Source: Candidatus Dormiibacterota bacterium (GTDB lineage Bacteria > Chloroflexota > Dormibacteria > Aeolococcales > Aeolococcaceae). From it: 64,000 bases of DNA. The notes under the pieces are model-generated. The model had not been told where the DNA came from. It searched no databases and saw nothing but the letters and a program-made list of their open reading frames with translations. The first letter of the stretch is position 1. Each line of letters starts with the position of its first letter. The stretch covers positions 1 through 64,000 of the forward strand of contig CAVPXI010000005.1 of NCBI GenBank assembly GCA_963709585.1. Direction: 5' to 3'. Made by a program: the position numbers and the translations under genes. Below, one piece after another: positions 7,846 through 35,674 of the stretch.

Positions 7846-9222
7846 ATGATCGCCCAGAAGGTTCCGGGCGCCACGGTGGCGGCCGGCCGGCGAGGAATCC
7901 TCGCCTCAGAGCGAAAGTTGTTGCTCGCGGCCGGCGACACAGTTCTCGTCGCCGCGTCACTCGTCATCGCGTTCAATCTCCGGTCGGGGCCGATCCAGCA
8001 CGCCGCCCTGACCATTCCCTGGATCGGGGTGGCGCTGGTCACGGCGATCTGGCTCACCGTGGCGCTGGTCGTCGACGCGTATGACCTTCATGCCGCCGTG
8101 AGTGCCCGGGCGATCTTCCGGGTTGTTGCCACGACCGTCACGCTTGAAACGATCGCTCTGCTTGTCGTCTTCTTCATCGCCCCCTATGGGGTGACCCGTC
8201 CGACCATCCTCATCTGGGTCCCGGTGGCGGCCCTCACCGTGCTGTGCTGGCGCCTGCTCTACCGGCGAGTATTCGCCCAGGCCATCTTTGCGGGGCGGAT
8301 CATGCTCGTCGCCGACCCCGAGACCGTCGACCGGGTCTGGGCCGATGTCGATCAGCAACTGTCCGGTCTCTATCGGGTGGTCGGGACCATCCACCCCGCC
8401 GATGTCGACGCCGGTAGCCGGCTCACCGCGGCGGCGACGGGGCGAGAGGCCGACCAGATCGTCCTCGGCGCCGAGGAGGATCTGCCGACCGATCTCTTTC
8501 AGAGCCTCGTGGACTGCTACGACCGCGGGCTTGTGGTGCGGTCGATCGCGGACATCTACGAGGAGTTGACCGGTCGCCTGCTCGTCGAACGCTTGCGTCA
8601 GACCTGGCTGCTGTCCCTGCAGCAACGCGGCGAGACGTCACGCGTCTATGCGGTCTTCAAGCGATTGGTCGACATCGTCGCGGGTTTCCTCGGCCTGGTC
8701 GTGCTCGCCGTGTTGCTCCCGTTCGTGTGGGTCGCCGTCAAGCTTGAGGATCGCGGCCCTCTGTTCCACAGGCAGGATCGCGTGGGCCACTTCGGGCGGG
8801 CGTTCGAGATCCTCAAGCTGCGCACGATGTATGCGAGGCCGGGTGAGAAGCTGCACTGGACCGCCCTGGACGACGAGCGCATCACCCGGGTCGGGAGGGT
8901 GCTCCGTCGCCTCCACCTCGACGAGCTTCCGCAGGCGTGGAACATCCTCCGCGGCGACATGAGCGTTGTGGGGCCGCGTCCCGAGCAGATCCGCTACGTC
9001 GAGGAACTCCGCGAGAGCATCCCCTACTACAACACGAGGCTCTCGGTCCGACCCGGCCTCACCGGCTGGGCTCAGGTGAACTTCGGTTATGGCAGCGGCG
9101 TCGACGGGTCCACGGTGAAACTCTCCTACGACCTGTACTACATCAAGCATCAGTCGGTTGCGCTCGACCTGCTGATCATCGCGCGCACGTTGTTCGCAGT
9201 GGCCACGCTCAAGGGCCGCTGA
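7846..9222 (+). CDS. Undecaprenyl-phosphate glycosylphosphotransferase (WcaJ/WbaP family)
   Basis: N-terminal TMs; KRLVD, KLRTM, LDELPQAWNILRGDMSVVGPRPE, RPGLTGWAQV, YDLYY. Confidence 0.92.
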   Translation: MIAQKVPGATVAAGRRGILASERKLLLAAGDTVLVAASLVIAFNLRSGPIQHAALTIPWIGVALVTAIWLTVALVVDAYDLHAAVSARAIFRVVATTVTLETIALLVVFFIAPYGVTRPTILIWVPVAALTVLCWRLLYRRVFAQAIFAGRIMLVADPETVDRVWADVDQQLSGLYRVVGTIHPADVDAGSRLTAAATGREADQIVLGAEEDLPTDLFQSLVDCYDRGLVVRSIADIYEELTGRLLVERLRQTWLLSLQQRGETSRVYAVFKRLVDIVAGFLGLVVLAVLLPFVWVAVKLEDRGPLFHRQDRVGHFGRAFEILKLRTMYARPGEKLHWTALDDERITRVGRVLRRLHLDELPQAWNILRGDMSVVGPRPEQIRYVEELRESIPYYNTRLSVRPGLTGWAQVNFGYGSGVDGSTVKLSYDLYYIKHQSVALDLLIIARTLFAVATLKGR

Positions 9223-11381
9223 GCCCACCCAGCTTGCCACTGCACGACCTCACGCACTCGATTCCCGGGGTGGTGATCGCCGCCCTGCTCCCGGGATTTG
9301 CTCTGGCGACGCTTCTCGCGCCTGGATGGCGGGCATGGCAGCGCCTCACGATGGCGCCCGGTTTGTCGGCCGGTTTTATCGGCGTCGCCGGCCTGGCGAT
9401 GCACGACGTGCACATCCCATTCGAGCCACTCACGATCTTTCCCGCTCTGATCGTGCTGGGTGTAGCGGCGGTCATTCGCTGGCGACGCCGCGACCGGGCA
9501 AGCGCTGACGAGGCACCCTGGTGGCTCCCACTGCCAGCCCTGCTGGCCGGGGCGGTGGGAGCCGCCATCTTTGTCCTCGCACTCCGCAACCAGCTCCTCC
9601 CCCCCGACTGGGATTCGCCGACTCACGCCGGTCTGGCCACCGCCATCGCGCGAGCGCACAACGTCCTCCCCTTGATCCCGATCCCGCTCGAAGCGACAGA
9701 ATTCGTGAGACCACGACCGGGCTTCGAAGCGATGACCGCCGTTGTGTCCTGGCTCGGCGCACCCTCGCCGGCGGAGGCGATGGGGCCGGTGATCGCGATG
9801 ACGCTCGTGCTGATGCCGCTGTCGCTCGCCTTCCTTGTCTACGAAGCGACCGGCTCGGTCGCGCTCACCGCGATCGTCCCGTTCTTCGCGCTCGGTCTCG
9901 CGTTTCCGTCCGGTCAGGCGATCATCGGACGATTCCCCGAGGTCGTCAACTCCACCCTGATCGTTCCATTCATCGTCGCATCGCTGCGCGTGATTCGCGG
10001 ACGAAGTACTCGCGAGAACGCGCTGTTGATCGTCGGCATCGTCACGTCGATCTGGGTGATCCACGGGCTCGAGTTGGTGACCGCGCTGGTTGTCGGGTGC
10101 GGCCTCTATGCGGTGGCCGTCTTCACCACCATGCGCGCCTCATGGCGTGCAGGTTTTGCTCGGATCGCACTGGTCGTGGGCGCGACCCTGGCCGGGGCAG
10201 CGCTGGTAACGCTGCTGACGCGCCTGCCGCACGTGCCGCCACCAACCCACATCCAGCCGTCACAGATCATCGTCGCGACCAAGAGCGCACCGGTGAAGTT
10301 TCACCATATTCTGCTGACGATCGCCGAGACCGACATCACCAGCCCCGTCGCACTCGCGCTCTATGTCATCGGCGCGATCACGCTGTTGATTCGTCGCAAG
10401 ATGCTGTGGGTCCTGGCTGCACAGATCCTGCTGATCCTGATGATGGTCGACGACCTCTTCCTCCACCGTCTGAGCTGGTTCTGGCGCCTCGTCTATCCGT
10501 GGGGCGACACAGACCGAATTCTCGGGGTGCAGTACTGGCTGATTCCGCTCGTGCTGGGTGCCGGCCTGCTGTCACTGGCGGACGTGCTCCGCCGGCTGTC
10601 GCGCACTCGCCGGTTGTGGGTGATAGTTTCGATCGCCGCAGTCGCAGTCGTTGCGATCGCATTCGTCGTACGGCACCCACTTGGGCGTCTCTGGACCTAC
10701 GTCATCAGCACGAACACCGTGTACCTCTACCCATTGGGCGTGTTCAACCGCCTGGCGCAGCTGCGTCCGTGGATCCCCATGCTGGCGACGGCCGCGATCG
10801 TCGTGATCGTCGCCTGGGTGGTGTTCGCGAGGCACATTGATGTTCCCGGCTTCGTCCACCGGCTGCTGGGTGGCTTCGGACAGCACCTCGATGGCGGCGC
10901 TGCCATCGTCGGTCTCCTGGCCGTGCTCTGTCTGGGAGTCGGCGCCACGACCGAGCTCGATGTGTACAGAACTGAGGTCAACACGCGCTCGCTCGTCTCC
11001 CCTGCCGACCTGGCGGTGCTGCAGCGCATGCAGCAGGTGCTCCCGAAGGGCGCGATCGTGATGAGCGATGGTGGCGACGACGCGGGCATGTGGATGGCGG
11101 CGCTGACCACGCTGACCCCGTTGGTACCGAACGGCTTCGCCTGGGGCTCGTTGGACACGCCGCTCGATGTGGCCCTCAGCAAGGCCTGCACCGACCCGGC
11201 CGGCGCTGAAGCCGCGCTCGCGCAGTCGCAGACCGACGCTGTCTTCGTCGGCGCGCTCAACATTGCCACGCCGCTCTACCCGTGGAACGTGGACTGCATC
11301 GCGCGGCTGCCGGACCTTCGTATCATCGCGTCGGCACCCTGGTATGGCGCCGTCGCCACCGGCTTCGCAGTGGTCAAATAG
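9219..11381 (+). CDS. Large polytopic membrane protein, probable GT-C/DUF6541-like; start at CTG 9219 or TTG 9234
   Basis: Many TM segments, PPDWDSPTH loop motif, soluble C-terminal domain; follows the priming transferase. Confidence 0.62.
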   Translation: MSPPSLPLHDLTHSIPGVVIAALLPGFALATLLAPGWRAWQRLTMAPGLSAGFIGVAGLAMHDVHIPFEPLTIFPALIVLGVAAVIRWRRRDRASADEAPWWLPLPALLAGAVGAAIFVLALRNQLLPPDWDSPTHAGLATAIARAHNVLPLIPIPLEATEFVRPRPGFEAMTAVVSWLGAPSPAEAMGPVIAMTLVLMPLSLAFLVYEATGSVALTAIVPFFALGLAFPSGQAIIGRFPEVVNSTLIVPFIVASLRVIRGRSTRENALLIVGIVTSIWVIHGLELVTALVVGCGLYAVAVFTTMRASWRAGFARIALVVGATLAGAALVTLLTRLPHVPPPTHIQPSQIIVATKSAPVKFHHILLTIAETDITSPVALALYVIGAITLLIRRKMLWVLAAQILLILMMVDDLFLHRLSWFWRLVYPWGDTDRILGVQYWLIPLVLGAGLLSLADVLRRLSRTRRLWVIVSIAAVAVVAIAFVVRHPLGRLWTYVISTNTVYLYPLGVFNRLAQLRPWIPMLATAAIVVIVAWVVFARHIDVPGFVHRLLGGFGQHLDGGAAIVGLLAVLCLGVGATTELDVYRTEVNTRSLVSPADLAVLQRMQQVLPKGAIVMSDGGDDAGMWMAALTTLTPLVPNGFAWGSLDTPLDVALSKACTDPAGAEAALAQSQTDAVFVGALNIATPLYPWNVDCIARLPDLRIIASAPWYGAVATGFAVVK

Positions 11382-23937: not shown

Positions 23938-24530
23938 CGCCTGGGTCCTTCTTCGGTTTGGGTGTCCTGGCTCGCTTCGGGGCAGCCGCCTTGGGCGCCG
24001 GCTTCTCCGTCTTCGGCTCGTCCGTCTCAGCCGCGACCGCTTCTTCGACGGCGAGCTCGGCGACGGCGACCTCGGCCTCCGCGGCTTCAGCCTCGACGGC
24101 GATCGCCTGGGCTTCGCGGGCGATGGTCTCGGCTTGCGCCTCGATCACCTCGGTCTTGGCCGCCTTCGGCGCGGCGGCACGCTTCGGCGCGCTTGCCTTC
24201 GGCTTGGCCGCGGCCTTGCCACGCCCGACCTCCTCGATGAGCAACTCGGTCAACTGGCTGCGGTAGCCGAGGGTGCGCCGGTGGCGTTTCTTCGGCTTGT
24301 AGGTGAAGACGCGGATCTTGCGTCCACGGCGGTGCGCGATCACCGTCGCGGTGACCGATGCCTCCACGGGCGATCCCTTGGCCACATCGGTCTCGGCGCC
24401 GTCACCGAGGAGCAGCACCGACTTCGAGCGTCACCGTCGACCCGACCTCGACTGGAATGCGATCGACGAGGATCCGGTCGCCGGAAGCGACACGGTACTG
24501 GTGACCGCCGTGCTGAAGGATTGCGTACAT
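23927..24530 (-). CDS. rplU: 50S ribosomal protein L21 with a long Ala/Lys/Glu tail; apparent +1 frameshift near 24422
   Basis: [14 protein letters not shown] from ATG 24530 (SD GAGG); [24 protein letters not shown] in the next frame. Confidence 0.93.
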
Positions 24531-24598
24531 CTGCCTCTCTCGCCGGGAGCGGGTTCACTCCACCGAGGAACGCCGGCTGATACCGGACGCGATATCCG

Positions 24599-24608
24599 AG
24601 ATTACCAC
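24599..24608 (-). promoter_or_regulatory. Extended -10 (GTGGTAATCT) for the rplU-rpmA-obgE operon
   Basis: TG-g-TAATCT about 70 nt upstream of the rplU start. Confidence 0.45.
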
Positions 24609-24645
24609 GCGCACCCGTTGACAGGCCCTCGGCGACGAGAGAAAT

Positions 24646-25575
24646 CTAGGAGCTGAAGACGTTGAGCGGGGCCGCGCCGGCGATGCTCACCTGGTCGCGC
24701 GACGCATCGGTGACCGCCACATGAATGGTGAACACGCCCTTCCCCGGGTTGGGAATGCACTGCGCGATGAATTCGATGGTGAGCGTGCCCGGACCGAGCG
24801 TCGTCTGCGGCGGTAACTCAAAGCCGCCGTAGAAGACCAGGTAACCGCCCTTGACCGGCGAGATCAGCGACTCCTGCGACGCGTTACCACCGAACGGCAT
24901 GATCGTCGACTGGTACTGGAGGACGGGCGGCAGGGTGACGAGCACGTCGACGGTGGGGGCGATTCCCGTGCCTTTGTTGGTGACCGTGACCCGATAGGTG
25001 ACCTGACCGAGGGGGTGCACCGTCGAAGGGCCGACGGACGCCGTGACTCCGAGCCGGGGTGCCTCGTTGACCGCAACCTGGATCGGGTGGCTCTGCACCG
25101 TGTCGGTGAGCGTGTCGTCGACCACCTGCGCCGCGAGTGAGTAGGTGTCGGGCTGCGCCGTGATGTTCACCGCGAAGTTGATCGACACCGATGCGTACTG
25201 GATCTGGCCGTTCGGTGACGTCGGCGACGAGAGCGACCAGACGCCCCACTGCGGGTTGGATATCCCGACTTGAGCGTCCTCGGGCGTGGTGCGCGCCGCC
25301 CCCTGGGTGTTGATCTGGTTGGTCACGGCGTACTGAAACGCGTTTGGCATCAACGCGTGGATGACCACGCCCGACGCGTTGCCGGGACCCAGGTTCTGCA
25401 CCGTCACGACGAAATCCGCGTCAGTGGTCCCCGGCGTATATGACGCACCGAAAGTGGAGCTGAGCGTGACCGAAAGTTGCGCCGCCTCGGAGCTGCAGGC
25501 GGTGACGAACAGCGCCACAGGCGCCAGGATCGCGACGGCAAGGATGCCCGTCAGATGCGACGCCGGTGCCCGCAC
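24646..25575 (-). CDS. Lipoprotein with two DUF11/Ig-like repeat domains
   Basis: Lipobox-like VTAC; repeated VTVQNLGPGNA / VTVTNKGTGIA motifs. Confidence 0.7.
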   Translation of the reverse strand: MRAPASHLTGILAVAILAPVALFVTACSSEAAQLSVTLSSTFGASYTPGTTDADFVVTVQNLGPGNASGVVIHALMPNAFQYAVTNQINTQGAARTTPEDAQVGISNPQWGVWSLSSPTSPNGQIQYASVSINFAVNITAQPDTYSLAAQVVDDTLTDTVQSHPIQVAVNEAPRLGVTASVGPSTVHPLGQVTYRVTVTNKGTGIAPTVDVLVTLPPVLQYQSTIMPFGGNASQESLISPVKGGYLVFYGGFELPPQTTLGPGTLTIEFIAQCIPNPGKGVFTIHVAVTDASRDQVSIAGAAPLNVFSS

Positions 25576-25595
25576 CCACCTGCTCCGCGAAACGG

Positions 25596-26255
25596 TCAGA
25601 CCCTGGAGGCGGTGCGAAGCGGCGCGAGCGGACGCCGCTGCCGCGTCGCGGTCAGCATGATGTCGGTGGTGCGCGGCAGCGGGTCTGGGTAGCCGATCTC
25701 ACCGAGCAGGCGAAGCGCGAGACCGACGTCCAAGCCGATGACCGTGTCGATGCGTCCGGCGACGGCCTCGACGAAGTCCGAGCCGCCACCCTGGATCGCA
25801 TATGCGCCGGCACGATCGAGCGGCTCGCCCGAAGCCACGTACATGTCGAGCGCGTCGTCGGTGAAGTCGCAGAACTTGACGGCCGAGCGGCTCACGCCGA
25901 GCGCCTCGTGGTCGCTCTCGGTGCACATCGCGCACACCCCGGTGAGCACGGTGTGGCGCTTGCCACGGAGGTCGTTGAGCATCTCCCGGGCCAGTTCGGG
26001 CGTGCGCGGCTTGCCGAGAGGGCCGTGGGGACCAACCACGATCGTGTCGGCGCTCAGCACGTACGTTCCAGCAGGAACTAGCTTGCTCACCGCGACGGCC
26101 TTCTGCCGGGCGACGAGCTGCACGGCGAGCTCCGCACTGACGCCGACGGGAAGCGAAACGTCGTCCGGGGGCTCCATGATCCGGAACCGGATCCCGGCCC
26201 TGGTCAGCAGCTCGCGCCGGCGAGGCGACCGGGACGCGAGAACGATTCCAATCAC
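25596..26255 (-). CDS. maf: Maf family nucleoside-triphosphate pyrophosphatase
   Basis: LASRSPRRRELL, SADTIV, LGKP, DRAGAYAIQ, VIGL. Confidence 0.93.
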   Translation of the reverse strand: MIGIVLASRSPRRRELLTRAGIRFRIMEPPDDVSLPVGVSAELAVQLVARQKAVAVSKLVPAGTYVLSADTIVVGPHGPLGKPRTPELAREMLNDLRGKRHTVLTGVCAMCTESDHEALGVSRSAVKFCDFTDDALDMYVASGEPLDRAGAYAIQGGGSDFVEAVAGRIDTVIGLDVGLALRLLGEIGYPDPLPRTTDIMLTATRQRRPLAPLRTASRV

Positions 26256-26367
26256 GTGGCGGTCACGCGCGCAACGGCCGCATCGAAATCTCGCGCCAAC
26301 TCACGCCCCATGCTAGCACCGCGATGCGACCGCGAGTTGATGGAGTCGGCGTTCGCGCACAACGGCT

Positions 26368-27105
26368 TTAGGGCCGTGCCGCGATGACCGCCGTCACCGA
26401 GGCGGCAATCGCGCACAGCCACGCGACCATGAACAGCGAGGGGTGCTCCCTTCGGGTCGCGGTTCGTATGAGCCGCAGGAGGAGCGCATAGACCACCACC
26501 GTCGCGACCAGCCCGAGGACCCAGACCGGCGCGAACGGCCACTGCTGCGCCGGTGGGATCAGGGTGGCGAGCATTACCTCGAGCGTCGCGGCGACGACTG
26601 TTGCCCGAGCCGCGACGGACCCGCTCGCCTCCTGGGGCTTGATCACTGCCGGGAGCGCCAGCAGGACGGCGATCACCGCGAGGATGCGCGCGGCGGCGTT
26701 CGCTCTCCCGGCCGCCCCCGAGATGTCGGTGCTGGAAAACGAGGTGGCCACAAGCCCGAGCAGGACCAGCGCGGTCCCGCCGAAGACGACCAGCACCAGG
26801 CGTCGTCGCGACCAGGGCTGCGGAGCCACGAGCGAGCCGGAGACAACGATCAGAAGCACCGCCGCCACCAGGTTGGCCGTCGCCCCGCCGGGTGGCGGGA
26901 GCGACGCTGCCGGGGTCCCGGGCAGCGGTGCCATCGCCGCGGCGACGGCTGCGATGGCGATGGCGGCGAGCCCGCGCGCATCGAGGGAGGTTGAACGCTC
27001 CATCCCCGCGCCACGGTAGGTCAGCCAGGCCATGACCGCCAGGAACAGGCCCCCGGGATACGCGGCGAGGGCAACGACCTCGAGGAGCAGCCCGAGCGGA
27101 TCCAT
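26368..27105 (-). CDS. Membrane protein, remote NuoH/HyfC-like
   Basis: About 8 hydrophobic segments; ALAAYPGGLFL..LTYRG resembles the NuoH-family N-terminus; operon context. Confidence 0.45.
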   Translation of the reverse strand: MDPLGLLLEVVALAAYPGGLFLAVMAWLTYRGAGMERSTSLDARGLAAIAIAAVAAAMAPLPGTPAASLPPPGGATANLVAAVLLIVVSGSLVAPQPWSRRRLVLVVFGGTALVLLGLVATSFSSTDISGAAGRANAAARILAVIAVLLALPAVIKPQEASGSVAARATVVAATLEVMLATLIPPAQQWPFAPVWVLGLVATVVVYALLLRLIRTATRREHPSLFMVAWLCAIAASVTAVIAARP

Positions 27106-27109
27106 CTCG

Positions 27110-28354
27110 TCAGTGACCGAACACGAATCCGGAGAGCGACTGCGGCGCAAGTCCGATCGCGATGCCGACGGCGACCAACAGCCAGGCGACAAGGTCGTTG
27201 AGGCGCCCGCGCAACCCGGCCAGGGGCACGACGCGCCCCCTGGTCCAGCACGCCATGACCGCGGCGACGAAGATCGCCGCCATCGCGATCACGGCGGCGA
27301 TCGTCGACCCGACGTTCCCCGCCGCGAGTGCCTCGAGGAGGAGCAGACGGCCCCAGAAGGCCGGCGACGGTGGGATGCCGCTGAGCAACGCCCAGGCCAC
27401 GCGACGCGGCCAGAGGAGACCGGCAGCTTCGGATCGCAGAAGAATCGGCGCGAGGGTGAGATGGGTCACCAGGATGATCAGCGCGCCGGTGACGGCGGGA
27501 GAGACCGCGGCCCCCTCGACGGCGGCGATGCAGAGTGAGATGTCCGCCATGAAGACGCGCCCGTAGCGCGTCCGGGCCGGGCCGCGCACCGCCCAGACCC
27601 CTCCCCAGACGGCGCTCCCCAGACCCACCACCAGCAGAACGTGCTCGAAGATGAGGCTCCCGTCGCCGAGGACTCCGCCAGGAATCCGCCCGGCGATGAT
27701 CAACACGACCGGCACCAGCAGGACCAGCCACGGCGCAACGTCGATGGGTCGAAGCGACCCGATGATCCCCGCTGCCCAACCCCCCAGCGGGTACACCGCC
27801 AGGAGCGCGGCGACCCCGGTGGCGAGCAGGGCGGCGACCACGACAGGACGATCCCCGCTTGTGAAGCCGGTGAGCGGCAGGAATGGCGAAGCCGCAACCA
27901 GCGCCATGGTCCCGGTCCCGGCGATGCGTCCGGCGGCGAGCGTCGCCTTCCCCGGCGCCTGGCCGATCCACCGAAGCACCAGGGTGGCGACCGCGACGGT
28001 CAGGGCCAGGGCGGTGACCAGCGGGTCACTGCTGGCCATGGCAACGGTTGCGGCCGCGCCGACCACACCGATGGTCCGCCCCACCGAGACGTCGATCGAG
28101 GGCTGGAGCAGCACCACCAGGGTCATCGAGAGGCCGGTGGCGACGAGCACTCCCTGACCCGCGCGGTCGAGGCCGGTGATGCCGGCCAGCCCTCCGAGCG
28201 GCACGGCAACGGTCGATGATCGCGTCGCGAGCAGGGTCAACCCCGCTCCGACCAGTGGCACCACCGCCACCAATCGCGCGGTGCGCCGGCGGAGGAGCGC
28301 CGACGTCAACAGGCCGAGCGCCAACCACGCCGAGGCGATGACCAGAGGGTTCAC
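27110..28354 (-). CDS. Degenerate antiporter-like subunit (NuoN/MrpD/HyfF-like)
   Basis: AVYPLGGW (cf. PFHxW), LVTH, LLSGIPPSPAFWGR (cf. SLAGIPPxxGFxGK); GTGA overlap. Confidence 0.65.
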   Translation of the reverse strand: MNPLVIASAWLALGLLTSALLRRRTARLVAVVPLVGAGLTLLATRSSTVAVPLGGLAGITGLDRAGQGVLVATGLSMTLVVLLQPSIDVSVGRTIGVVGAAATVAMASSDPLVTALALTVAVATLVLRWIGQAPGKATLAAGRIAGTGTMALVAASPFLPLTGFTSGDRPVVVAALLATGVAALLAVYPLGGWAAGIIGSLRPIDVAPWLVLLVPVVLIIAGRIPGGVLGDGSLIFEHVLLVVGLGSAVWGGVWAVRGPARTRYGRVFMADISLCIAAVEGAAVSPAVTGALIILVTHLTLAPILLRSEAAGLLWPRRVAWALLSGIPPSPAFWGRLLLLEALAAGNVGSTIAAVIAMAAIFVAAVMACWTRGRVVPLAGLRGRLNDLVAWLLVAVGIAIGLAPQSLSGFVFGH

Positions 28355-28980
28355 GTGTGAGCACGTCGCGAGCTTCGCCCGTTCAACCACCCGGCGAGGA
28401 AGGCCGCAAGCGGCGCGACGACACAGACGAGAGCCGCGCCGGGGATCGAGTCGGAGCCGCTTCGCAGCAGCCACGCCGTACCGGTCGCGATGCCCACCAT
28501 CGCGATGCCGACGCCCAGGTCCTCCACGGTTCGGGCGAGCACCAGCCGGATGACGCCACAGGTCCAGGCGTAGGCGATCGGGAAGAGCAGTCCCTCGGTG
28601 ACGGCGACCTGGCCGATCGGAACGTTGAAGCTCACCCACGAGGCGACCGGGAGCGCGACCGCCGCACCGAACGCGCGGCCGCTCCTGGGACCGAAAAGCC
28701 GGTCGGTCGGCGCGAACGCCGGGATGGTCGGGTCGAGGCCGGTGAGCCAGGGGAGGACTCGTCCGCCCAGCCAGCCGGCCCAACTCAGGAGCACCACGGC
28801 GATCGCGCAGGCACCGAGCACGGCCACCCCGGGCGCGCCCCCGAAGGTCGCCGCCGTCGGTGCGAGCCCGGCGGCGAGCAGGACGGCCGCGATCGCAACC
28901 GCGCGCCTGCCGTCCACCATCATCGCGATCGCCGCGGCGAGCACACCCGCGGCAGAGAGCAGCGGCGCGGAAACCCCCAT
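28351..28980 (-). CDS. Membrane protein, possibly HyfE-like
   Basis: 209 aa, about 7 TM segments, coupled on both sides to antiporter-like genes. Confidence 0.45.
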   Translation of the reverse strand: MGVSAPLLSAAGVLAAAIAMMVDGRRAVAIAAVLLAAGLAPTAATFGGAPGVAVLGACAIAVVLLSWAGWLGGRVLPWLTGLDPTIPAFAPTDRLFGPRSGRAFGAAVALPVASWVSFNVPIGQVAVTEGLLFPIAYAWTCGVIRLVLARTVEDLGVGIAMVGIATGTAWLLRSGSDSIPGAALVCVVAPLAAFLAGWLNGRSSRRAHT

Positions 28981-30653
28981 CAGTGAATCAGCTGGAAGAG
29001 CAGGATGGCCAGGATCGCTCCCCCGAGGACCACGACCAGCTGGGGCTGCACCACGAGCCAGTCGTCCGTCTGGCGCAGCCACGAGCTCCCGCGAACCGCG
29101 GCCGGCCGCAGCCGCCTGGCGATCCCGACCCCGATGGCACGCGCCGCAGCCGCTGAAGGCTGATCCTCGTTTGGCGACGAAGTCGCCGGCGACCAGCCCA
29201 CCAGCGTCGCAAAAGCCCACGCGCCGGCGGCGACGATGACGAACGCGACGACGATATAGCCGCCCGACCAGTCGCCCGCGTTGCTCCGGATCGCCGCGGC
29301 GCCGATCGGCTCGGTCAGCCCAGTCGAGTTGAGGGCAGCGAGCACCGAGGTCGCGATCGTGCCGGGCACCACGGCCGCGATCAGCGATACGACCGCCGCC
29401 ACCGCGCCAAGCAGCGAGGGGTACCCGGACCGCTCGGCATTCCCTCCCGAGGTCAGCACCCGCGTCGCGGCCTGAACCGCCGCCGCAGCGCCCAGGACGC
29501 CGGCGACGCCGAGTGCGGCCAGGAGGGCGGTTCCGGGGCGGCCGATCGAGACTGTCGCGGAGAGCTCGAGGATCAGGGCGGTGATGCCGAACCCGATCGG
29601 CAGGGACCCCGCGGCGCCGAGCGCGAAGGCGGCCAGGATAATCCCGCCCCGGCCGCGACCGATGTGCTCCCACGCCGCGGTCAGTGCCGTGACCAGCATC
29701 AGGGAGCAGACGCCCGCAGCGATGGCTGCACCCGCGGGAGGTCCCGCGACGCCCGTGAGCGCGACTACCGGCGCAGCGGCGATGACGCAGAGCGCCCGGC
29801 CCGTGATCACCGGCACGCGCGATCGGCGCAGGGCGACCACCACCGCCAGGGTCGCGGCCATGCCGCCCGCAGCCGCGAGCCCGATCGCAATCTGTTCGGG
29901 GAGCGGACCGGCGGCAGCCTCCCGGAGCCGTAGCAGGACGATCGCTCCGCACGGGATGGCGCCGGTTGTCGCCCATGCCGCCGTCGGGGTCCGGCTTCCC
30001 CGAATCGGAACGAACGCCGGCGAGAAGAGCCGCACCGCACCCGCCGCGGCCCACGGCCCGGCAACGGTCGCGCCCATCGCGCCGGCCGGAATCACTGCGA
30101 AGTCGGTTGTGCCGGCGACGCTCAGGAGCTGGACCGCGGCCACCACCAGGCCGAGTGACGCGAGGTGTTCGAGCCCGACGGCGACGAGCCCACCGCGGCC
30201 GGGGCGGCCGCGGGCGGCGCTGGTCATCAGCAGGGTCCCGACGCCCGCGATCTCGACACCGGCGGCCAGCATCACCACGTTGCCGGCGTCGGTCGCCAGA
30301 ATCGTGCCCGCCACGCAGACGAGGAGCGCGCTCACCTCGCGGGTTTGCCGGTCGCTCTCGAGCAGGAGGAGGAGGCCGGCCGCCGCCGCGGCAACCCCGA
30401 GGGTCGCGCCGGGCAGGTCGAGACGGAGCAGGTAGGGGATCCCGGCGACGGGGGTGCCGAGCGATGTCTCGATGCGCCCGCTTCCGTTGAGGAAGGCGGC
30501 TTCAACCGCCAGCAACGCGATGGTCATCGCGATGCCGACCCCCGCAACGATTCGCGCGGCGCGCGCCTGTCCTGGAGCGAGAGCGAAGACGGCGATGGCC
30601 GCGATGATCAGCGGCGCGGGTATGAGCGCGAGCTGGAGCCCACCGCCCAGCAT
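28980..30653 (-). CDS. Degenerate antiporter-like subunit (MrpA/MrpD/HyfB-like)
   Basis: LRLD, AGNVVMLAAGVE (TM5 Glu), AGTTDF, AVRLFSPAFVP, GAIVLLRL, AAGSLPIGFG follow the proton-translocating subunit pattern. Confidence 0.65.
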   Translation of the reverse strand: MLGGGLQLALIPAPLIIAAIAVFALAPGQARAARIVAGVGIAMTIALLAVEAAFLNGSGRIETSLGTPVAGIPYLLRLDLPGATLGVAAAAAGLLLLLESDRQTREVSALLVCVAGTILATDAGNVVMLAAGVEIAGVGTLLMTSAARGRPGRGGLVAVGLEHLASLGLVVAAVQLLSVAGTTDFAVIPAGAMGATVAGPWAAAGAVRLFSPAFVPIRGSRTPTAAWATTGAIPCGAIVLLRLREAAAGPLPEQIAIGLAAAGGMAATLAVVVALRRSRVPVITGRALCVIAAAPVVALTGVAGPPAGAAIAAGVCSLMLVTALTAAWEHIGRGRGGIILAAFALGAAGSLPIGFGITALILELSATVSIGRPGTALLAALGVAGVLGAAAAVQAATRVLTSGGNAERSGYPSLLGAVAAVVSLIAAVVPGTIATSVLAALNSTGLTEPIGAAAIRSNAGDWSGGYIVVAFVIVAAGAWAFATLVGWSPATSSPNEDQPSAAAARAIGVGIARRLRPAAVRGSSWLRQTDDWLVVQPQLVVVLGGAILAILLFQLIH

Positions 30654-30660
30654 CGTGGCG

Positions 30661-31128
30661 CTACCTCCCGGTGCGGGCCAGCGCCGGCGCTCCGACCTCA
30701 GTGGCGCAGTACGGGCAGACCCCCCAACCCAGGCGGAGGCTGCGGTCGCATCCCGTGCACCGCCGGGCGAACTGGGTCCGGCAGTAGGGGCAGAGGATGA
30801 ACTCCTGCTCGATCTCGCGTCCGCAGGTCGGACACGGTCGGGTGGGTACGCCCTCGACCGGTGGCTCGAGGAGCACCTGCTCCTCGATGGCGAGCGATCG
30901 CACCTGCTCCATCGTCATCGGCGGCCGCACCATGAAATAGATCAGCGCGCCGAGGAATGGCGGTACGAAACCGAGCAGCATCGCGAACAGCGCGAAGCCG
31001 GGCGACGTCGTGCGCCGGCGCGCGTCGCGGACGACGTAGAAGGCCAGCGCGAGCCAGAGCACGACAACGTAGGCGATGACGATGGTCAGCACGGCGGTGA
31101 GCAGCGTCCCCAGGTCAACCAGCAGCAT
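30661..31128 (-). CDS. Membrane protein with a C-terminal double zinc ribbon
   Basis: N-terminal TMs with RDARRR and YFMVRPP; CPTC, CPYC, CTGC, CPYC; SD GGAGG. Confidence 0.85.
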   Translation of the reverse strand: MLLVDLGTLLTAVLTIVIAYVVVLWLALAFYVVRDARRRTTSPGFALFAMLLGFVPPFLGALIYFMVRPPMTMEQVRSLAIEEQVLLEPPVEGVPTRPCPTCGREIEQEFILCPYCRTQFARRCTGCDRSLRLGWGVCPYCATEVGAPALARTGR

Positions 31129-33763
31129 CGATGCGTCCTCCTGACGGGCCGCGGCGGAGCAGATCCAGCTGTACCTGGGCTTCGGCGAGCCGGCGGCGCG
31201 ACTCGTCCACGACCCGGGCAGGTGCCCCGTTCACGAACGCCGGGTTCGCGAGCTGTGCCTGGAGACGCGACACGGTTGCCTCGAGCAGGCCGATCTGACG
31301 TGCGGTCGCACTGGCGTCGGCGGCGGTGTCGGCGATCACCACCTCGGCGTGGAGCCTACCCGAAACCACGACCACCGGATCGACGCCGCGCTCGTGGCCG
31401 TCCACGAGCTTCGCGGGCACGAGGCCGCCGATCAAGCGAGTGATGTGCTTGCTCGTGCCCCGCCCGTCGGCGGCGCGCACCGCCACCCGGATCCGATCGC
31501 GGGCGCCCCGCGGCACCCGGTGGCTGTGACCGAGCGCCCGGATCCGCTGCACCAGCTCGATCGCCTCGGCGATCTCGTGGTGCGCGGCTGCCGTCTCGGC
31601 GTCGCTCCAGAGCGGATCCTCCTCCGGCCACGCGCGCTGCTGGAGCGTCGGCGCGGCATTCGGGAGCTGCTGCGCGCATTCCTCGGTGACGAACGGCATG
31701 AACGGGTGCAGCAGGCGCAGGAGCACGTCCAGGGTGGTGACCGCGGTCCACACCGCCGCGCGCCGCGATTCGTCATCGCCCGCATCGGCGAGACGCAGCT
31801 TGATGATCTCGACGTACCAGTCGCAGAACGAATGCCACGTGGTGTCGTAGAGACGCTCGACCGCATCGTGGAATCGGAACGCCGCGAACCCGGCGTCGCA
31901 CTCGCGAACCACGGCCGCAAGCTCGGCCAGCATCCATCGATCCTCGGGACGGAGCGTCTCCGGCCCGGGTGGATGGATGTCGAGGTCGGCGGCCGATCCG
32001 TTGCCGACCTTGGCGACGAGGAACCCGCTGGTCACCTGCCATAGCTTGTTGGCGAAACGCTGGTACGACGCGATGCGGTCCTCGTCGAATCGCATGTCCT
32101 GGCCGCTGGTTCCCACCGCCGCCGCCCACGCGCGCACCGCGTCGGCGCCGAACTTGTCGATGAGGTCGAGCGGGTCGATGGTGTTGCCCTTCGACTTGCT
32201 CATCCGGGATCCGTCGATCGCCTGGATGGTGCTCGTGATCAACACGTCGGTGAACGGATTGCGGTCCGTGAACTTGAGCCCCGTCATGATCATTCGGGCA
32301 ACCCAGAGAAAGATGATGTCGCGTCCGGTGACGAGCACATCGGTGGGATAGAACTTCTCGAGCTCCGCTGTCTGCTCCGGCCAGCCGAAGATCGCAAACG
32401 GCCACAAGCCGCTGCTGAACCAGGTGTCGAGCACATCAGGGTCGTGGGTCAGCGCCGTGTTCCCACACTCGGGGCACTGCACCGGCGGGTCGATCCAGGC
32501 GAACCGATGCCCGTTGCCACACGTCGACACCGGGATCGCGTGCCCCAGCCAGATCTGCCTGCTGATGCACCAGTCCTTGATGTTGCGCATCCAGTGCAGA
32601 TACACGTCGGTGTATCGCGCGGGATGGAATGCGATCTCGCCACTTTCGACTGCACCGATCGCCGGAGCCGCGAGCGATGCCATGCGCACCCACCACTGCT
32701 CACTCACGAGTGGTTCGAGCACGGTGCCGCATCGGTCGCAATGACCCACCTCGTGGGTGTACGGCTCCTCTTTGACGAGCGAGCCGATTGCCCGGAGCGC
32801 ATCCGCGACCGCCGTCCTCGCCTGTTCGACGGGCATGCCGTGGAACTGTGGCAGCGAGGGCACGTCCATGGTCCCGTCGAGCGCGATCACGTTGATGATC
32901 GGGAGTGAATGACGCGCCCCGATCTCGTAGTCGGTCGGGTCGTGACCCGGGGTCACCTTGAGCGCGCCCGTGCCGAACTCGGGACGCACTGCGGCATCAG
33001 CGAAGATCGGCACCACCCGCCCCGTCAACGGCAGGGTGACGTGCTTGCCGATGAGTAACGTGTAACGGGGGTCGTCGGGCGCAACCGCCACCCCCGTGTC
33101 GCCGAGCATCGTCTCGGGACGCACCGTGGCGACGGTGATGTCCAGACCACCCTCGACCGGATACTTGAGGTAGTAGAGCGGGTCGGTCTGCTCCTGCCAG
33201 TCGATCTCCTCATCGCTGATGGCGGACGCACAGCCCGGGCACCAGTTGACGATTCGCGGGCCTCGGTAGACGAGCCCTTCGTCGTAGAGCGCCTTGAACA
33301 CGAACCGGATGGCGCGCACGTACTGGTCGTCGAGGGTGAAACGAGAACGCTCCCAGTCGCACGTGTATCCCATCCGTCGCATCTGCTCGTAGATGCGTCC
33401 GCCGTACTCCTCATACCACGCGTCGACTCGCCTTTGGAAGGCCGCTCTGCCCAACTCCTCCTTCGAGGTTCCCTCGTCGTCGAGCTGCCGCTCGATGACG
33501 TTTTGGGTGGCGATGGCGGCGTGGTCGGTCCCCGGGCACCACTCGACCTCGAAGCCGCGCATCCGCCGCTGGCGGCACAGCGTGTCCTGGATGGAGAACG
33601 TCGATGCGTGGCCCATGTGCAGCGCGCCGGTGATGTTCGGGGGCGGAAGCGCGATGACAAATGCGGGCTTGGTGCTGGTGACATCGGCATGCCCTACTTC
33701 GAGCTCTCTCCAGCGCTCACGCCACCGCGGTTCCACGCTGGACCAGTCGAAATGTTTTTCCAT
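31115..33763 (-). CDS. valS: Valine--tRNA ligase
   Basis: PPPNITGALHMGH, GTDHAAIATQ, DWCISRQIW, DVLDTWFSS, RMSKS; start at ATG 33763 (TATACT 10 nt upstream) or 33787. Confidence 0.96.
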   Translation of the reverse strand: MEKHFDWSSVEPRWRERWRELEVGHADVTSTKPAFVIALPPPNITGALHMGHASTFSIQDTLCRQRRMRGFEVEWCPGTDHAAIATQNVIERQLDDEGTSKEELGRAAFQRRVDAWYEEYGGRIYEQMRRMGYTCDWERSRFTLDDQYVRAIRFVFKALYDEGLVYRGPRIVNWCPGCASAISDEEIDWQEQTDPLYYLKYPVEGGLDITVATVRPETMLGDTGVAVAPDDPRYTLLIGKHVTLPLTGRVVPIFADAAVRPEFGTGALKVTPGHDPTDYEIGARHSLPIINVIALDGTMDVPSLPQFHGMPVEQARTAVADALRAIGSLVKEEPYTHEVGHCDRCGTVLEPLVSEQWWVRMASLAAPAIGAVESGEIAFHPARYTDVYLHWMRNIKDWCISRQIWLGHAIPVSTCGNGHRFAWIDPPVQCPECGNTALTHDPDVLDTWFSSGLWPFAIFGWPEQTAELEKFYPTDVLVTGRDIIFLWVARMIMTGLKFTDRNPFTDVLITSTIQAIDGSRMSKSKGNTIDPLDLIDKFGADAVRAWAAAVGTSGQDMRFDEDRIASYQRFANKLWQVTSGFLVAKVGNGSAADLDIHPPGPETLRPEDRWMLAELAAVVRECDAGFAAFRFHDAVERLYDTTWHSFCDWYVEIIKLRLADAGDDESRRAAVWTAVTTLDVLLRLLHPFMPFVTEECAQQLPNAAPTLQQRAWPEEDPLWSDAETAAAHHEIAEAIELVQRIRALGHSHRVPRGARDRIRVAVRAADGRGTSKHITRLIGGLVPAKLVDGHERGVDPVVVVSGRLHAEVVIADTAADASATARQIGLLEATVSRLQAQLANPAFVNGAPARVVDESRRRLAEAQVQLDLLRRGPSGGRIDAAG

Positions 33764-33794
33764 TGGGCGATTGAGTATATGGGCCATCCGGGTG

Positions 33795-34382
33795 TCACTC
33801 GCCCGCGGGGATGGTCGCGCCGGATTGCACGTTGCGCCATTCGGGGGTGAAAGGTGAGCCGGCGTAGACGAGCTGCGGGGTCGAGGTGGCGAGCCGAGCG
33901 GCCGCCGCACCCTCCCCCACCGCGGGAAAGCTCGCCGGAGCAGCGGGCCCCTGCGCCGAGATATCGGCGACCGAACCGAAGTATGCCCGACCGCCGCAGC
34001 CGACATAGAACGCGACCAGCCCGATGAGCCGCGTCGCGCTGCCCCCCGTCTCCGGGGCGGCGAGCGGCACCACCACCGCGGCCGGCTGCCCGGCGGCGGC
34101 GGCGGCCACATCCACCGGTTCCTGCGGTGTCGCACCGTCGAGGTTCGGGCTCACCACAGCGGCCGCGTTCTCACCCACCAGAGCTAGTGCCGCGAGGTTG
34201 TTCGAGTCGAATGACTGATCGAAACCTCCGAGCGCGCGAAGCGATGCGGACAGGCTCGGTGCCGGAGCGGCGATGGCGCAGCCGGGGGTGGTGTTGGTGA
34301 TGACATGCGTGAGCGTGATCAGGGTCACCGCGAAGAAGATCACCACGGCCGCCGCGCCCAGCGCGATGGCCCGGCGGCTCAC
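33795..34382 (-). CDS. Secreted or membrane-anchored hypothetical protein
   Basis: N-terminal signal/TM, two Cys; tightly packed between clpX and valS. Confidence 0.65.
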   Translation of the reverse strand: MSRRAIALGAAAVVIFFAVTLITLTHVITNTTPGCAIAAPAPSLSASLRALGGFDQSFDSNNLAALALVGENAAAVVSPNLDGATPQEPVDVAAAAAGQPAAVVVPLAAPETGGSATRLIGLVAFYVGCGGRAYFGSVADISAQGPAAPASFPAVGEGAAAARLATSTPQLVYAGSPFTPEWRNVQSGATIPAGE

Positions 34383-34384
34383 GC

Positions 34385-35674
<1,290 letters not shown>

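Follow-up and report, generated by a model that had tools for sequence, protein, structure and literature searches.

Four membrane-protein genes, here called A, B, C and D, lie together on the minus strand of a 64,000-nucleotide stretch of DNA from a Candidatus Dormiibacterota bacterium (contig CAVPXI010000005.1, positions 1 to 64,000; the whole stretch is referred to as the window). They sit between valS and maf, behind a small zinc-ribbon gene, ZnR (Table 1). We find that the four genes are a real and conserved module, an offshoot of the membrane arm of complex I and the group-4 [NiFe]-hydrogenases that has no soluble partner and no canonical proton relay. On balance it is probable that A-D make up a class-specific membrane complex descended from the arm common to the group-4 [NiFe]-hydrogenases (formate hydrogenlyase, FHL; Hyf; membrane-bound hydrogenase, Mbh or MBH), complex I and Mrp. 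A preliminary description of this DNA had reported four tightly coupled membrane genes of 557, 209, 414 and 245 amino acids between ZnR and maf, and both their coordinates and their lengths are correct. A hydropathy scan counts 13, 6, 12 and 8 hydrophobic segments in A, B, C and D, respectively.

Protein A is an antiporter-like subunit of the NuoL/HycC/MrpA type. Its AlphaFold2 (AF2) model (pLDDT 58.7, pTM 0.59) has 168 Foldseek matches at E ≤ 1e-3, with NuoL, HycC and MrpA/D chains in the lead; the best is 8e9g_L (4.2e-10), and 7z0s_C, which we take to be HycC, is matched at 2.3e-9. Antiporter-like chains fill the first 26 of 50 VIA-align rows, with Z from 31.1 to 21.4, and the next row stands at 10.6. 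These 26 rows include NdhD, NuoN/M/L, MrpD/A, MbsH-type, HycC and MbhH chains, the best being 6tjv_D (Z 31.1, root-mean-square deviation (rmsd) 3.0, 414 residues aligned). The sequence profiles point the same way. An hhalign comparison of A with a NuoL alignment reaches 90% (E 1.6e-6) over the N-terminal 185 columns, and the profile of the A family, searched against 1.84 billion representative sequences, reaches three proteins that pass PF00361 (E 1.9e-5, 2.4e-4 and 2.8e-4). The other 36 members of the A family that were scanned comprise 31 without a Pfam match, four with unrelated weak matches and one with a weak match to PF00361. We label the families of the class f1 to f5, where f1 includes the source genus; an A orthologue from f4 (L095) scores 22.2 bits against PF00361, for which the cut-off is 21.5.

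The residues of A that correspond to the proton relay are as the preliminary description had them: a kept Glu in transmembrane helix 5 (TM5), an Arg in place of the TM7 Lys and no TM12 Lys. In the profile alignment, E134 aligns with the TM5 Glu. R208 falls in the segment of the TM7 Lys, where a gap placed by the aligner leaves its precise column in doubt. At the TM12 Lys position A has Thr358 or Leu360, and E363 lies one helical turn further. Among 59 representatives of the A family, position 134 is Glu in 32 and Gln in 10, position 208 is Arg in 36 and position 242 (R242) is Arg in 56. A does not possess the complete TM5 Glu/TM7 Lys/TM12 Lys/Glu relay of the Proton_antipo_M superfamily. Beyond the channel core, a long helix (residues 504-535) is followed by the final membrane helix of A (537-556), and the most conserved motifs of the protein, W462xGGY and D530xWLxxQP, belong to this C-terminal extension.

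Protein C can be placed by its profile as an antiporter-like subunit of the NuoN/M/MrpD type. With a 27-row alignment, hhalign matches C to NuoL at 95.2% (2.7e-8), to NuoM at 93.8% and to NuoN at 93.6% (347 columns), and to the A family at 98.1% (6.6e-14); the controls, NuoH (E 0.69) and NuoK (E 0.57), both at 0.1%, do not match. Narrower alignments are weak, with E 0.039 for A against C and E 0.003-0.004 for C (20 rows, f1 and f2) against NuoL and NuoN; the profile links become significant only once the f4 and f5 orthologues are added. The C orthologue of one f5 genome (L106) itself matches PF00361 at 26.4 bits, above the cut-off. Together with the Foldseek and VIA results for A, these profile matches bear out the earlier view that A and C are both antiporter-type subunits. 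It had also been noticed that C lacks the TM5 Glu and the TM7 Lys and has Arg at TM12. Aligned with the NuoN of the same genome, C has Val in the TM5 Glu column, Leu184 in the TM7 Lys column and R336 (GIPPSPAFWGR) in the TM12 Lys column, exactly as described, and it does not carry the TM5 Glu/TM7 Lys/TM12 Lys relay. A buried acidic residue, D271, is found in the TM8 'SSIAQ' segment. In the alignment of f1 and f2 sequences, R336, D271 and R263 are invariant in 20/20 rows, and the TM12 Arg motif (GF.AR or GFxxR) recurs in the C sequences of f4 and f5.

Protein D has, in its predicted model, a HycD/NuoH-type fold. The AF2 model, built from a 38-row alignment of f1, f2 and f4 sequences, reaches pLDDT 80.2 and pTM 0.80. 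Its best VIA match is 7z0t_D (Z 14.1, rmsd 3.6, 212 residues aligned), followed by 6u8y_m (13.3), 6cfw_M (11.9), 7a23_H (11.7) and 8iuf_N1 (10.5); the next row is at 7.5. The first three chains are presumably HycD, MbsM and MbhM, and the last two ND1 subunits. Helical models can score Z near 14 by chance in VIA. We nevertheless regard the match as real, because of the gap to the unrelated rows and because the top matches cover residues 6-245, nearly the full length. In Foldseek, every one of the first 50 rows is a chain from a complex I, NDH-1, FHL or MBH entry, with a best E of 4.2e-3 and none at or below 1e-3. A language-model look-alike search (Atlas) had placed D near a NuoH cluster (0.86), a lead that the predicted fold later bore out. 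The NuoH/HyfC-like character proposed for D in the preliminary description is thus matched by the predicted fold and not by a sequence profile: D and five orthologues have no match to PF00146 at E ≤ 1, and hhalign against NuoH gives E 0.05-0.08. Comparisons of D with NuoK, NuoJ, NuoL, NuoN and the MrpA C-terminus gave no E below 0.05. D is also a short member of its type, with 245 residues compared to 336 in the NuoH encoded by the same genome. The conserved loop that follows TM5 in NuoH falls in a gap of the weak D-NuoH alignment, and D appears to be without the long TM5-6 loop, which in NuoH forms the quinone and partner site. No charged column is conserved across the 38 rows.

Protein B could not be placed in a family. 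Eight B orthologues have no Pfam match at E ≤ 1, B has no NCBIfam match, and hhalign comparisons with NuoK, NuoJ, NuoH, NuoL, NuoN and the MrpA C-terminus all give E ≥ 0.29 (the NuoJ alignment used for B and D had 3 rows). Membership in the NuoK/HyfE family (PF00420) has no support from sequence profiles, given that absence of Pfam matches and an E of 0.39-0.47 against NuoK. The language-model look-alikes of B are MbhD (0.81) and HyfE (0.80), which are leads only, and the former designation of B as HyfE-like, for which the 0.80 lead is the lone remaining pointer, is not supported. What B does have is a predicted contact with C. The predicted B-C complex has an ipSAE of 0.71 (0.64, 0.72 and 0.71 in the individual runs), compared to 0.00 for the best of three controls, with a partner pLDDT of at least 68 and at least 95% of contacts in agreement between runs. 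The mark for such a prediction is reached by 116/157 solved complexes and by 2/215 mismatched pairs. Because B is without a known family, the result is not a memory of a solved complex. The predicted interface brings B 81-195 together with C 56 and 112-172, and in this prediction B docks on C. Confident predicted contacts are listed between B and C only; none is listed to D, which is no evidence about D.

The Lys/Glu axis of the module appears, from the alignments, to be largely replaced by Arg, Leu or Val. The preliminary description had called this axis degenerate, and by profile alignment of A and C it is largely gone. A, B, C and D contain 0, 0, 1 and 1 Lys, respectively (2 Lys in 1,425 residues). 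The NuoL, NuoM, NuoN and NuoH of the same genome each hold 5-12 Lys and keep the canonical Glu and Lys, so base composition does not explain the loss of the relay.

No hydrogenase-like, NuoB/D-like, DabA-like or MrpA-C-terminal partner is located near the module or is spare in the genome, which was searched family by family and is 88.8% complete, with 8,000 bases left out. PF00346 (NuoD) and PF00146 (NuoH) have a single match each, both in the nuo operon on contig C14. PF01058 (NuoB) has three significant matches, one in the nuo operon and two beside PF00374 large subunits; the latter are two ordinary [NiFe]-hydrogenase loci, with small and large subunits paired in each. We did not find a match in the genome to PF13244 (MbhD/MrpA C-terminal), a family that is matched in 8/81 genomes of the phylum sample, or to PF10070 (DabA) at E ≤ 0.01. 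PF00361 has six matches, three on C14 and three on contig C23 and none in the window, and PF00420 matches are confined to the nuo operon and C23. The partner-less state of the cluster was part of the preliminary description, and the check it proposed, for unlinked soluble subunits of Ehr or group 4 type, also came out negative within the sequenced portion of the genome.

The module is conserved class-wide and always directly follows valS. The class sampled is probably Dormibacteria, judging from the record names of A homologues, which come from sources named Candidatus Dormibacteria or Dormibacterota. A is present in 24/24 further genomes of the genus and, at ~30% identity, in 8/16 genomes of the second family, f2. 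The family profile detects it in 31/33 genomes of the class (f1 11/13, f2 1/1, f3 6/6, f4 9/9, f5 4/4), counts that are a floor from a stricter first look. The genome tallies for A, D, ZnR and PF13244 each include 1-4 unpublished genomes (G032, G078, G185, G213, G311, G381, G389, G398, G399), none of which is in the alignments or models. Full-length matches to the A profile within the class score at least 118 bits, whereas matches outside it score at most 102. Those outside that could be placed are canonical genes, several in frame with a PF13244 MrpA C-terminal match and one 1.5 kb after NuoH. Against the 1.84 billion representative sequences, the profile finds 122 proteins at E ≤ 1e-3. Of the 61 full-length representatives, 58 have an f1-f5 A protein as best match (three of them very weakly), and two of the remaining three are canonical PF00361 proteins.

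The order valS-ZnR-A-B-C-D-maf is found in 17/17 loci of the same genus, and valS is directly upstream of the module in 13/13 loci of f3, f4 and f5 (tblastn and hidden Markov model synteny). The architectures of the families are variations on this order: valS-ZnR-A-B-C-D-maf in f1; valS-A-B-C-D-maf in f2; valS-ZnR-A, a single open reading frame (ORF) of ~510 aa and maf in f3; valS-A-B-C-D and then rplU-rpmA-obg or mreB-mreC in f4; and valS-ZnR-A-B-C-maf-mreB-mreC in f5. The long ORF of f3 was read in L101 and L102, and the space between A and maf is ~1.5-1.7 kb in all four f3 loci (L101-L104). This ORF resembles B at its N-terminus and has a TM12-like 'WPPAxxFAG' motif. In one f5 genome (L107, oriented 8644-10371), one ORF of 575 aa covers both B and C. 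From their sequences, both the ~510-aa and the 575-aa ORFs are probably natural B-C fusions. D was found in 19/27 genomes of f1, 6/10 of f2, 36/36 of f4, 0/11 of f5 and 1/36 of f3 (one weak, partial match), and ZnR in 27/27 of f1, 0/10 of f2, 35/36 of f3, 0/36 of f4 and 10/11 of f5. The range of ZnR (f1, f3, f5) is nearly complementary to that of D (f1, f2, f4). Because D and ZnR are patchy between families, the core is valS plus A-B-C, with D and ZnR as accessories.

A-D are under purifying selection and are less constrained than their neighbours. The ratio of nonsynonymous to synonymous substitution rates (dN/dS; median Nei-Gojobori, 151-153 pairs from 18 genomes of the genus) is 0.21 for A, 0.14 for B, 0.18 for C and 0.24 for D, compared to 0.076 for ZnR and 0.044 for maf. 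Within the genus maf is 91-98% identical. Between f1 and f2, identity is ~27-37% for A-C, 36-51% for valS and 56-59% for maf. Frames are intact and the start/stop overlaps are retained in f1 and f2. These ORFs did not arise by chance from the high G+C content, since the same order is seen in 17/17 loci and dN/dS is 0.14-0.24. The preliminary description had argued from intact ORFs against decay and had proposed synteny and dN/dS across relatives as a check; the cluster proves to be conserved and does not evolve neutrally.

ZnR is a lineage-specific neighbour and not an obligatory part of the module. It encodes four CxxC pairs; the 8 Cys and the overlap of ZnR and valS had been given in the preliminary description. 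Besides the DZR match (PF12773, E 1.3e-8) it has a weak PLDc_N match. Its suggested role as the cytoplasmic part of the module does not agree with its absence from f2 and f4 (0/10 and 0/36), families that keep A-B-C-D. Where present, ZnR always lies between valS and A, and it is far better conserved than A-D, with 42-67% identity across families and the dN/dS of 0.076 given above.

What the complex does is best considered from what is lost and what is kept. We infer a single complex whose core would be A, B and C, with B predicted to dock on C; the C-terminal helix and anchor of A may clamp a neighbouring subunit, by analogy with the lateral helix of NuoL. D and ZnR would be lineage-specific accessories. 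Since the Lys/Glu relay is replaced and D is without conserved charges and, it appears, without the loop, the complex should be neither a redox-driven pump nor a canonical Mrp-type H+/cation antiporter, and it presumably cannot relay protons along the canonical Lys/Glu chain. The conserved fold, the broken-helix prolines, one acid-Arg pair in each antiporter-like subunit and the C-terminal motifs of A favour some residual charge handling. We therefore propose, tentatively and as a reading that falls somewhat short of probable, that the complex still handles charge, either as a non-proton ion path or as a voltage- or ion-responsive conformational device. Buried fixed pairs would serve this purpose, E134-R208 in A and D271-R336 in C, together with the kept proline and broken-helix motifs, and the complex would be expressed with growth genes. 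In its fullest form this proposal would make the module the first complex-I-type arm, NuoH/HycD-type subunit included, to be permanently without a soluble redox module or proton relay. It would have been taken over for a housekeeping function coupled to growth and be translated together with valS beside maf-mreBC, acting for example as a voltage or ion sensor or as a non-proton conduit via the fixed Arg-acid pairs. Stated so specifically it is rather unlikely. The preliminary description had likewise spoken of a repurposed membrane complex. The ancestry of A, C and D, the lost axis, the missing partners and the conservation of the cluster all uphold that idea, and its HyfE-like B and its use of ZnR as the cytoplasmic module are not supported.

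Several points weigh against this overall explanation. A-D themselves have no Pfam match at E ≤ 1 and no meaningful NCBIfam match, and a profile of 26 A homologues searched against PDB sequences gave no match at E ≤ 10. The AF2 model of A is of low confidence overall (pLDDT 58.7) and below 50 in residues 434-513, which makes the lateral-helix comparison a weak one. The link between D and NuoH is drawn from a predicted fold with Foldseek E ≥ 4e-3 and hhalign E 0.05-0.08, and the missing TM5-6 loop is read from a weak alignment and from length. B is assigned to no known family or fold by its sequence. The E134-R208 pair is not universal (Glu in 32/59, Arg in 36/59), and a partner may have escaped notice, since the genome is 88.8% complete and was searched less 8,000 bases.

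Ranked next after charge handling is a structural scaffold, which we consider unlikely. Here transport would be lost altogether, and the complex would organise the membrane or anchor proteins near the growth and cell-elongation genes (valS ... maf-mreB-mreC). Few residues are invariant between families, and Gly, Pro, Arg and Trp make up most of them. No charge is conserved in D, the top-conserved motifs of A are in its C-terminal extension and not in the channel core, and maf and/or mreB-mreC follow the module in f5 and in some f4 loci. Against a scaffold stand the invariant buried D271 of C and its invariant Arg in the TM12 Lys column (20/20 f1 and f2 rows). The Arg motif recurs in f4 and f5, the broken-helix prolines are kept, and gene neighbourhood alone shows no link to MreB.

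It is improbable that the module is a working Mrp-like cation/proton antiporter in which Arg stands in for Lys through high G+C. Mrp proves that a redox-free assembly of this superfamily can be an antiporter. A and, judged by profile, C have this type of fold, with MrpD and MrpA chains near the top of the matches, and the genes are under purifying selection. But at physiological pH an Arg is unable to pass protons on, and the TM5 Glu and TM7 Lys columns of C hold Val and Leu. The change is not forced by composition either, since the TM5 Glu and both the TM7 and the TM12 Lys are retained in the genome's own NuoN. The genome also has no PF13244 match, and its PF00420 genes are confined to the nuo operon and C23; the search did not extend to MrpE, MrpF and MrpG.

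Less probable still is that the module serves as a docking arm for a soluble partner encoded elsewhere (Ehr-like, hydrogenase or other oxidoreductase). The predicted fold of D belongs to the subunit on which the soluble module is mounted in FHL, MBH and complex I, and the genome holds two ordinary [NiFe]-hydrogenase loci. Yet their subunits are together in their own loci and the lone PF00346 match is in the nuo operon, while D is without a conserved charged residue and seems to be without the TM5-6 loop. D is also missing, but for the weak and partial match in f3, from two families that keep A-B-C (1/36 f3 and 0/11 f5 genomes). Finally, a decaying neutral relic or spurious high-G+C ORFs can be dismissed as very improbable: A-D do evolve much faster than their neighbours, as the f1-f2 identities show, but dN/dS is 0.14-0.24, frames and overlaps are kept, the module is class-wide, and the models of A and D match specific known folds.

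Table 1. Genes of the module and its immediate flanks in the window.
Feature	Position	Strand	Description	Basis
valS	31115-33787	-	valyl-tRNA synthetase, directly upstream of the module	ORF and translation
ZnR	30661-31128	-	155 aa, two N-terminal hydrophobic helices and a C-terminal double zinc ribbon	PF12773, E 1.3e-8
A	28980-30653	-	557 aa, divergent antiporter-like subunit (NuoL/MrpA/HycC type)	predicted fold and profile
B	28351-28980	-	209 aa, 6-7 membrane helices, without known family	predicted docking on C
C	27110-28354	-	414 aa, GTG start, divergent antiporter-like subunit by profile (NuoN/M/MrpD type)	profile-profile comparison
D	26368-27105	-	245 aa, 8 helices, predicted short HycD/NuoH-type subunit	predicted fold
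maf	25596-26255	-	downstream flank, outside the module	PF02545, E 4e-48

The genes of the module are translationally coupled behind valS. The stop of valS and the start of ZnR overlap by 14 nt, 7 nt separate the stop of ZnR from the start of A, which is preceded by GGGAGG, and A and B share 1 nt at a TGATG junction. B and C overlap by 4 nt (GTGA), 4 nt lie between C and D, and 112 nt between D and maf. The window has a G+C content of ~70%. By Pfam scan, the module is part of a co-oriented minus-strand housekeeping run of tig, two ABC-transporter genes, clpP, clpX, valS, ZnR, A, B, C, D and maf, which continues after maf with a DUF11/CARDB protein, rplU, rpmA, obg, a cytidylyltransferase-like (nadD-like) gene and rsfS. 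The DUF11/CARDB protein directly follows maf (24646-25575, minus strand) and has a signal- or lipoprotein-like N-terminus; a comparable ORF of 277-309 aa follows maf in f2 loci. The true start of valS is likely the ATG at 33787. The valS frame is open for 116 codons 5' of this start (31115-34135, minus strand), and the extension is Arg/Pro-rich and looks non-coding.

A scan of 24400-34600 found no promoter-like and three terminator-like sites, no more than in shuffled sequences. In the metatranscriptome run X20, contigs of relatives (~93% alike in the pieces listed) cover all four genes, and one of them, 1,131 nt long, extends across the D/C junction. These contigs are a hint of expression; they show neither strand nor level, and DNA carry-over is possible. 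Runs X18 and X19 are probably DNA.

Two other loci of the genome carry PF00361 genes. On contig C23 (L111:4937-11324, plus strand), a second membrane-only cluster follows mnmA. It encodes two polytopic proteins (137 and 204 aa) that have no Pfam match, a NuoK-like protein (PF00420, ~L111 6015-6290) and a trio of PF00361 proteins, 612, 496 and 495 aa long, with no NuoH, NuoB or NuoD nearby. On contig C14, the first PF00361 gene after nuoK (L112:6586-8289) groups with NuoL sequences. It ends ~90 codons past the Pfam domain and seems to be without the long C-terminal extension seen in the 620-750-aa NuoL of other genomes. This may point to an error in the gene model or the assembly, or to a short form of NuoL.

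Textbook accounts of redox-driven and secondary ion pumps count antiporter-like and NuoH-like subunits among the standard components, and the Lys/Glu proton mechanism of these subunits is still argued. The module offers a natural, class-wide experiment on what the fold can do without relay and redox module. If the reading of a growth-coupled device is true, the antiporter fold is re-usable outside bioenergetics. The module also marks a conserved, Pfam-unannotated gene set in Dormibacteria, an uncultured soil lineage. Some JGI records label A homologues 'formate hydrogenlyase subunit 3/MnhD', and descent from the common arm may explain such names in some database records.

We did not find a description of the module in a literature search that did not cover supplements, but it can be compared to several known systems. 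Mrp (Mnh/Pha/Sha) is, like the module, a redox-free multi-subunit membrane complex around two antiporter-like subunits, and MrpD and MrpA chains are among the top structural matches of A. Unlike Mrp, the module has lost the relay, its cluster contains no NuoK/MrpC-like gene, and the genome is without PF13244; the MrpA C-terminal domain and MrpC are both missing from the module. A NuoH-type subunit, present in the module as D, is one that we take Mrp to lack.

The DAB/MpsAB systems use an antiporter-like protein outside respiration, a stand-alone NuoL-like protein with DabA, according to the portions consulted of two reports (PMC6689103, PMC8552792). The module differs in having four membrane subunits and no soluble partner, and DabA (PF10070) was not found in the genome. 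Ehr complexes are defined, in the part of one report used here (PMC6349859), by hydrogenase-like subunits without the Ni-Fe ligands. They resemble the module as complex-I-like assemblies with antiporter-like subunits that have lost their original chemistry, and they differ from it because no hydrogenase-like subunit is found in the cluster or spare in the genome. Classification of the module as an Ehr/Hyf complex was thus rejected, since the hydrogenase-like large and small subunits are absent from the cluster and PF00374 and PF01058 are paired in their own loci.

In contrast to complex I, the module has no peripheral arm and no NuoA/J/K matches, and the genome has its own complete-looking nuo operon on C14. 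The two are alike in bringing H-type and L/M/N-type folds together, and the N-terminal profile match of A to NuoL (90%) belongs to this likeness. Lastly, the membrane arms of FHL and hydrogenase-4 (HycC-HycD; HyfB-C-D-E-F) and of MBH/MBS differ from the module in that the latter is without hydrogenase subunits, large or small, and without Fe-S proteins, and has a shorter D without conserved charges, replaced relay Lys/Glu and a B without detectable likeness to NuoK/HyfE. What the module shares with them is that antiporter-like subunits and a HycD/MbhM-type subunit, as D is predicted to be, are encoded together.

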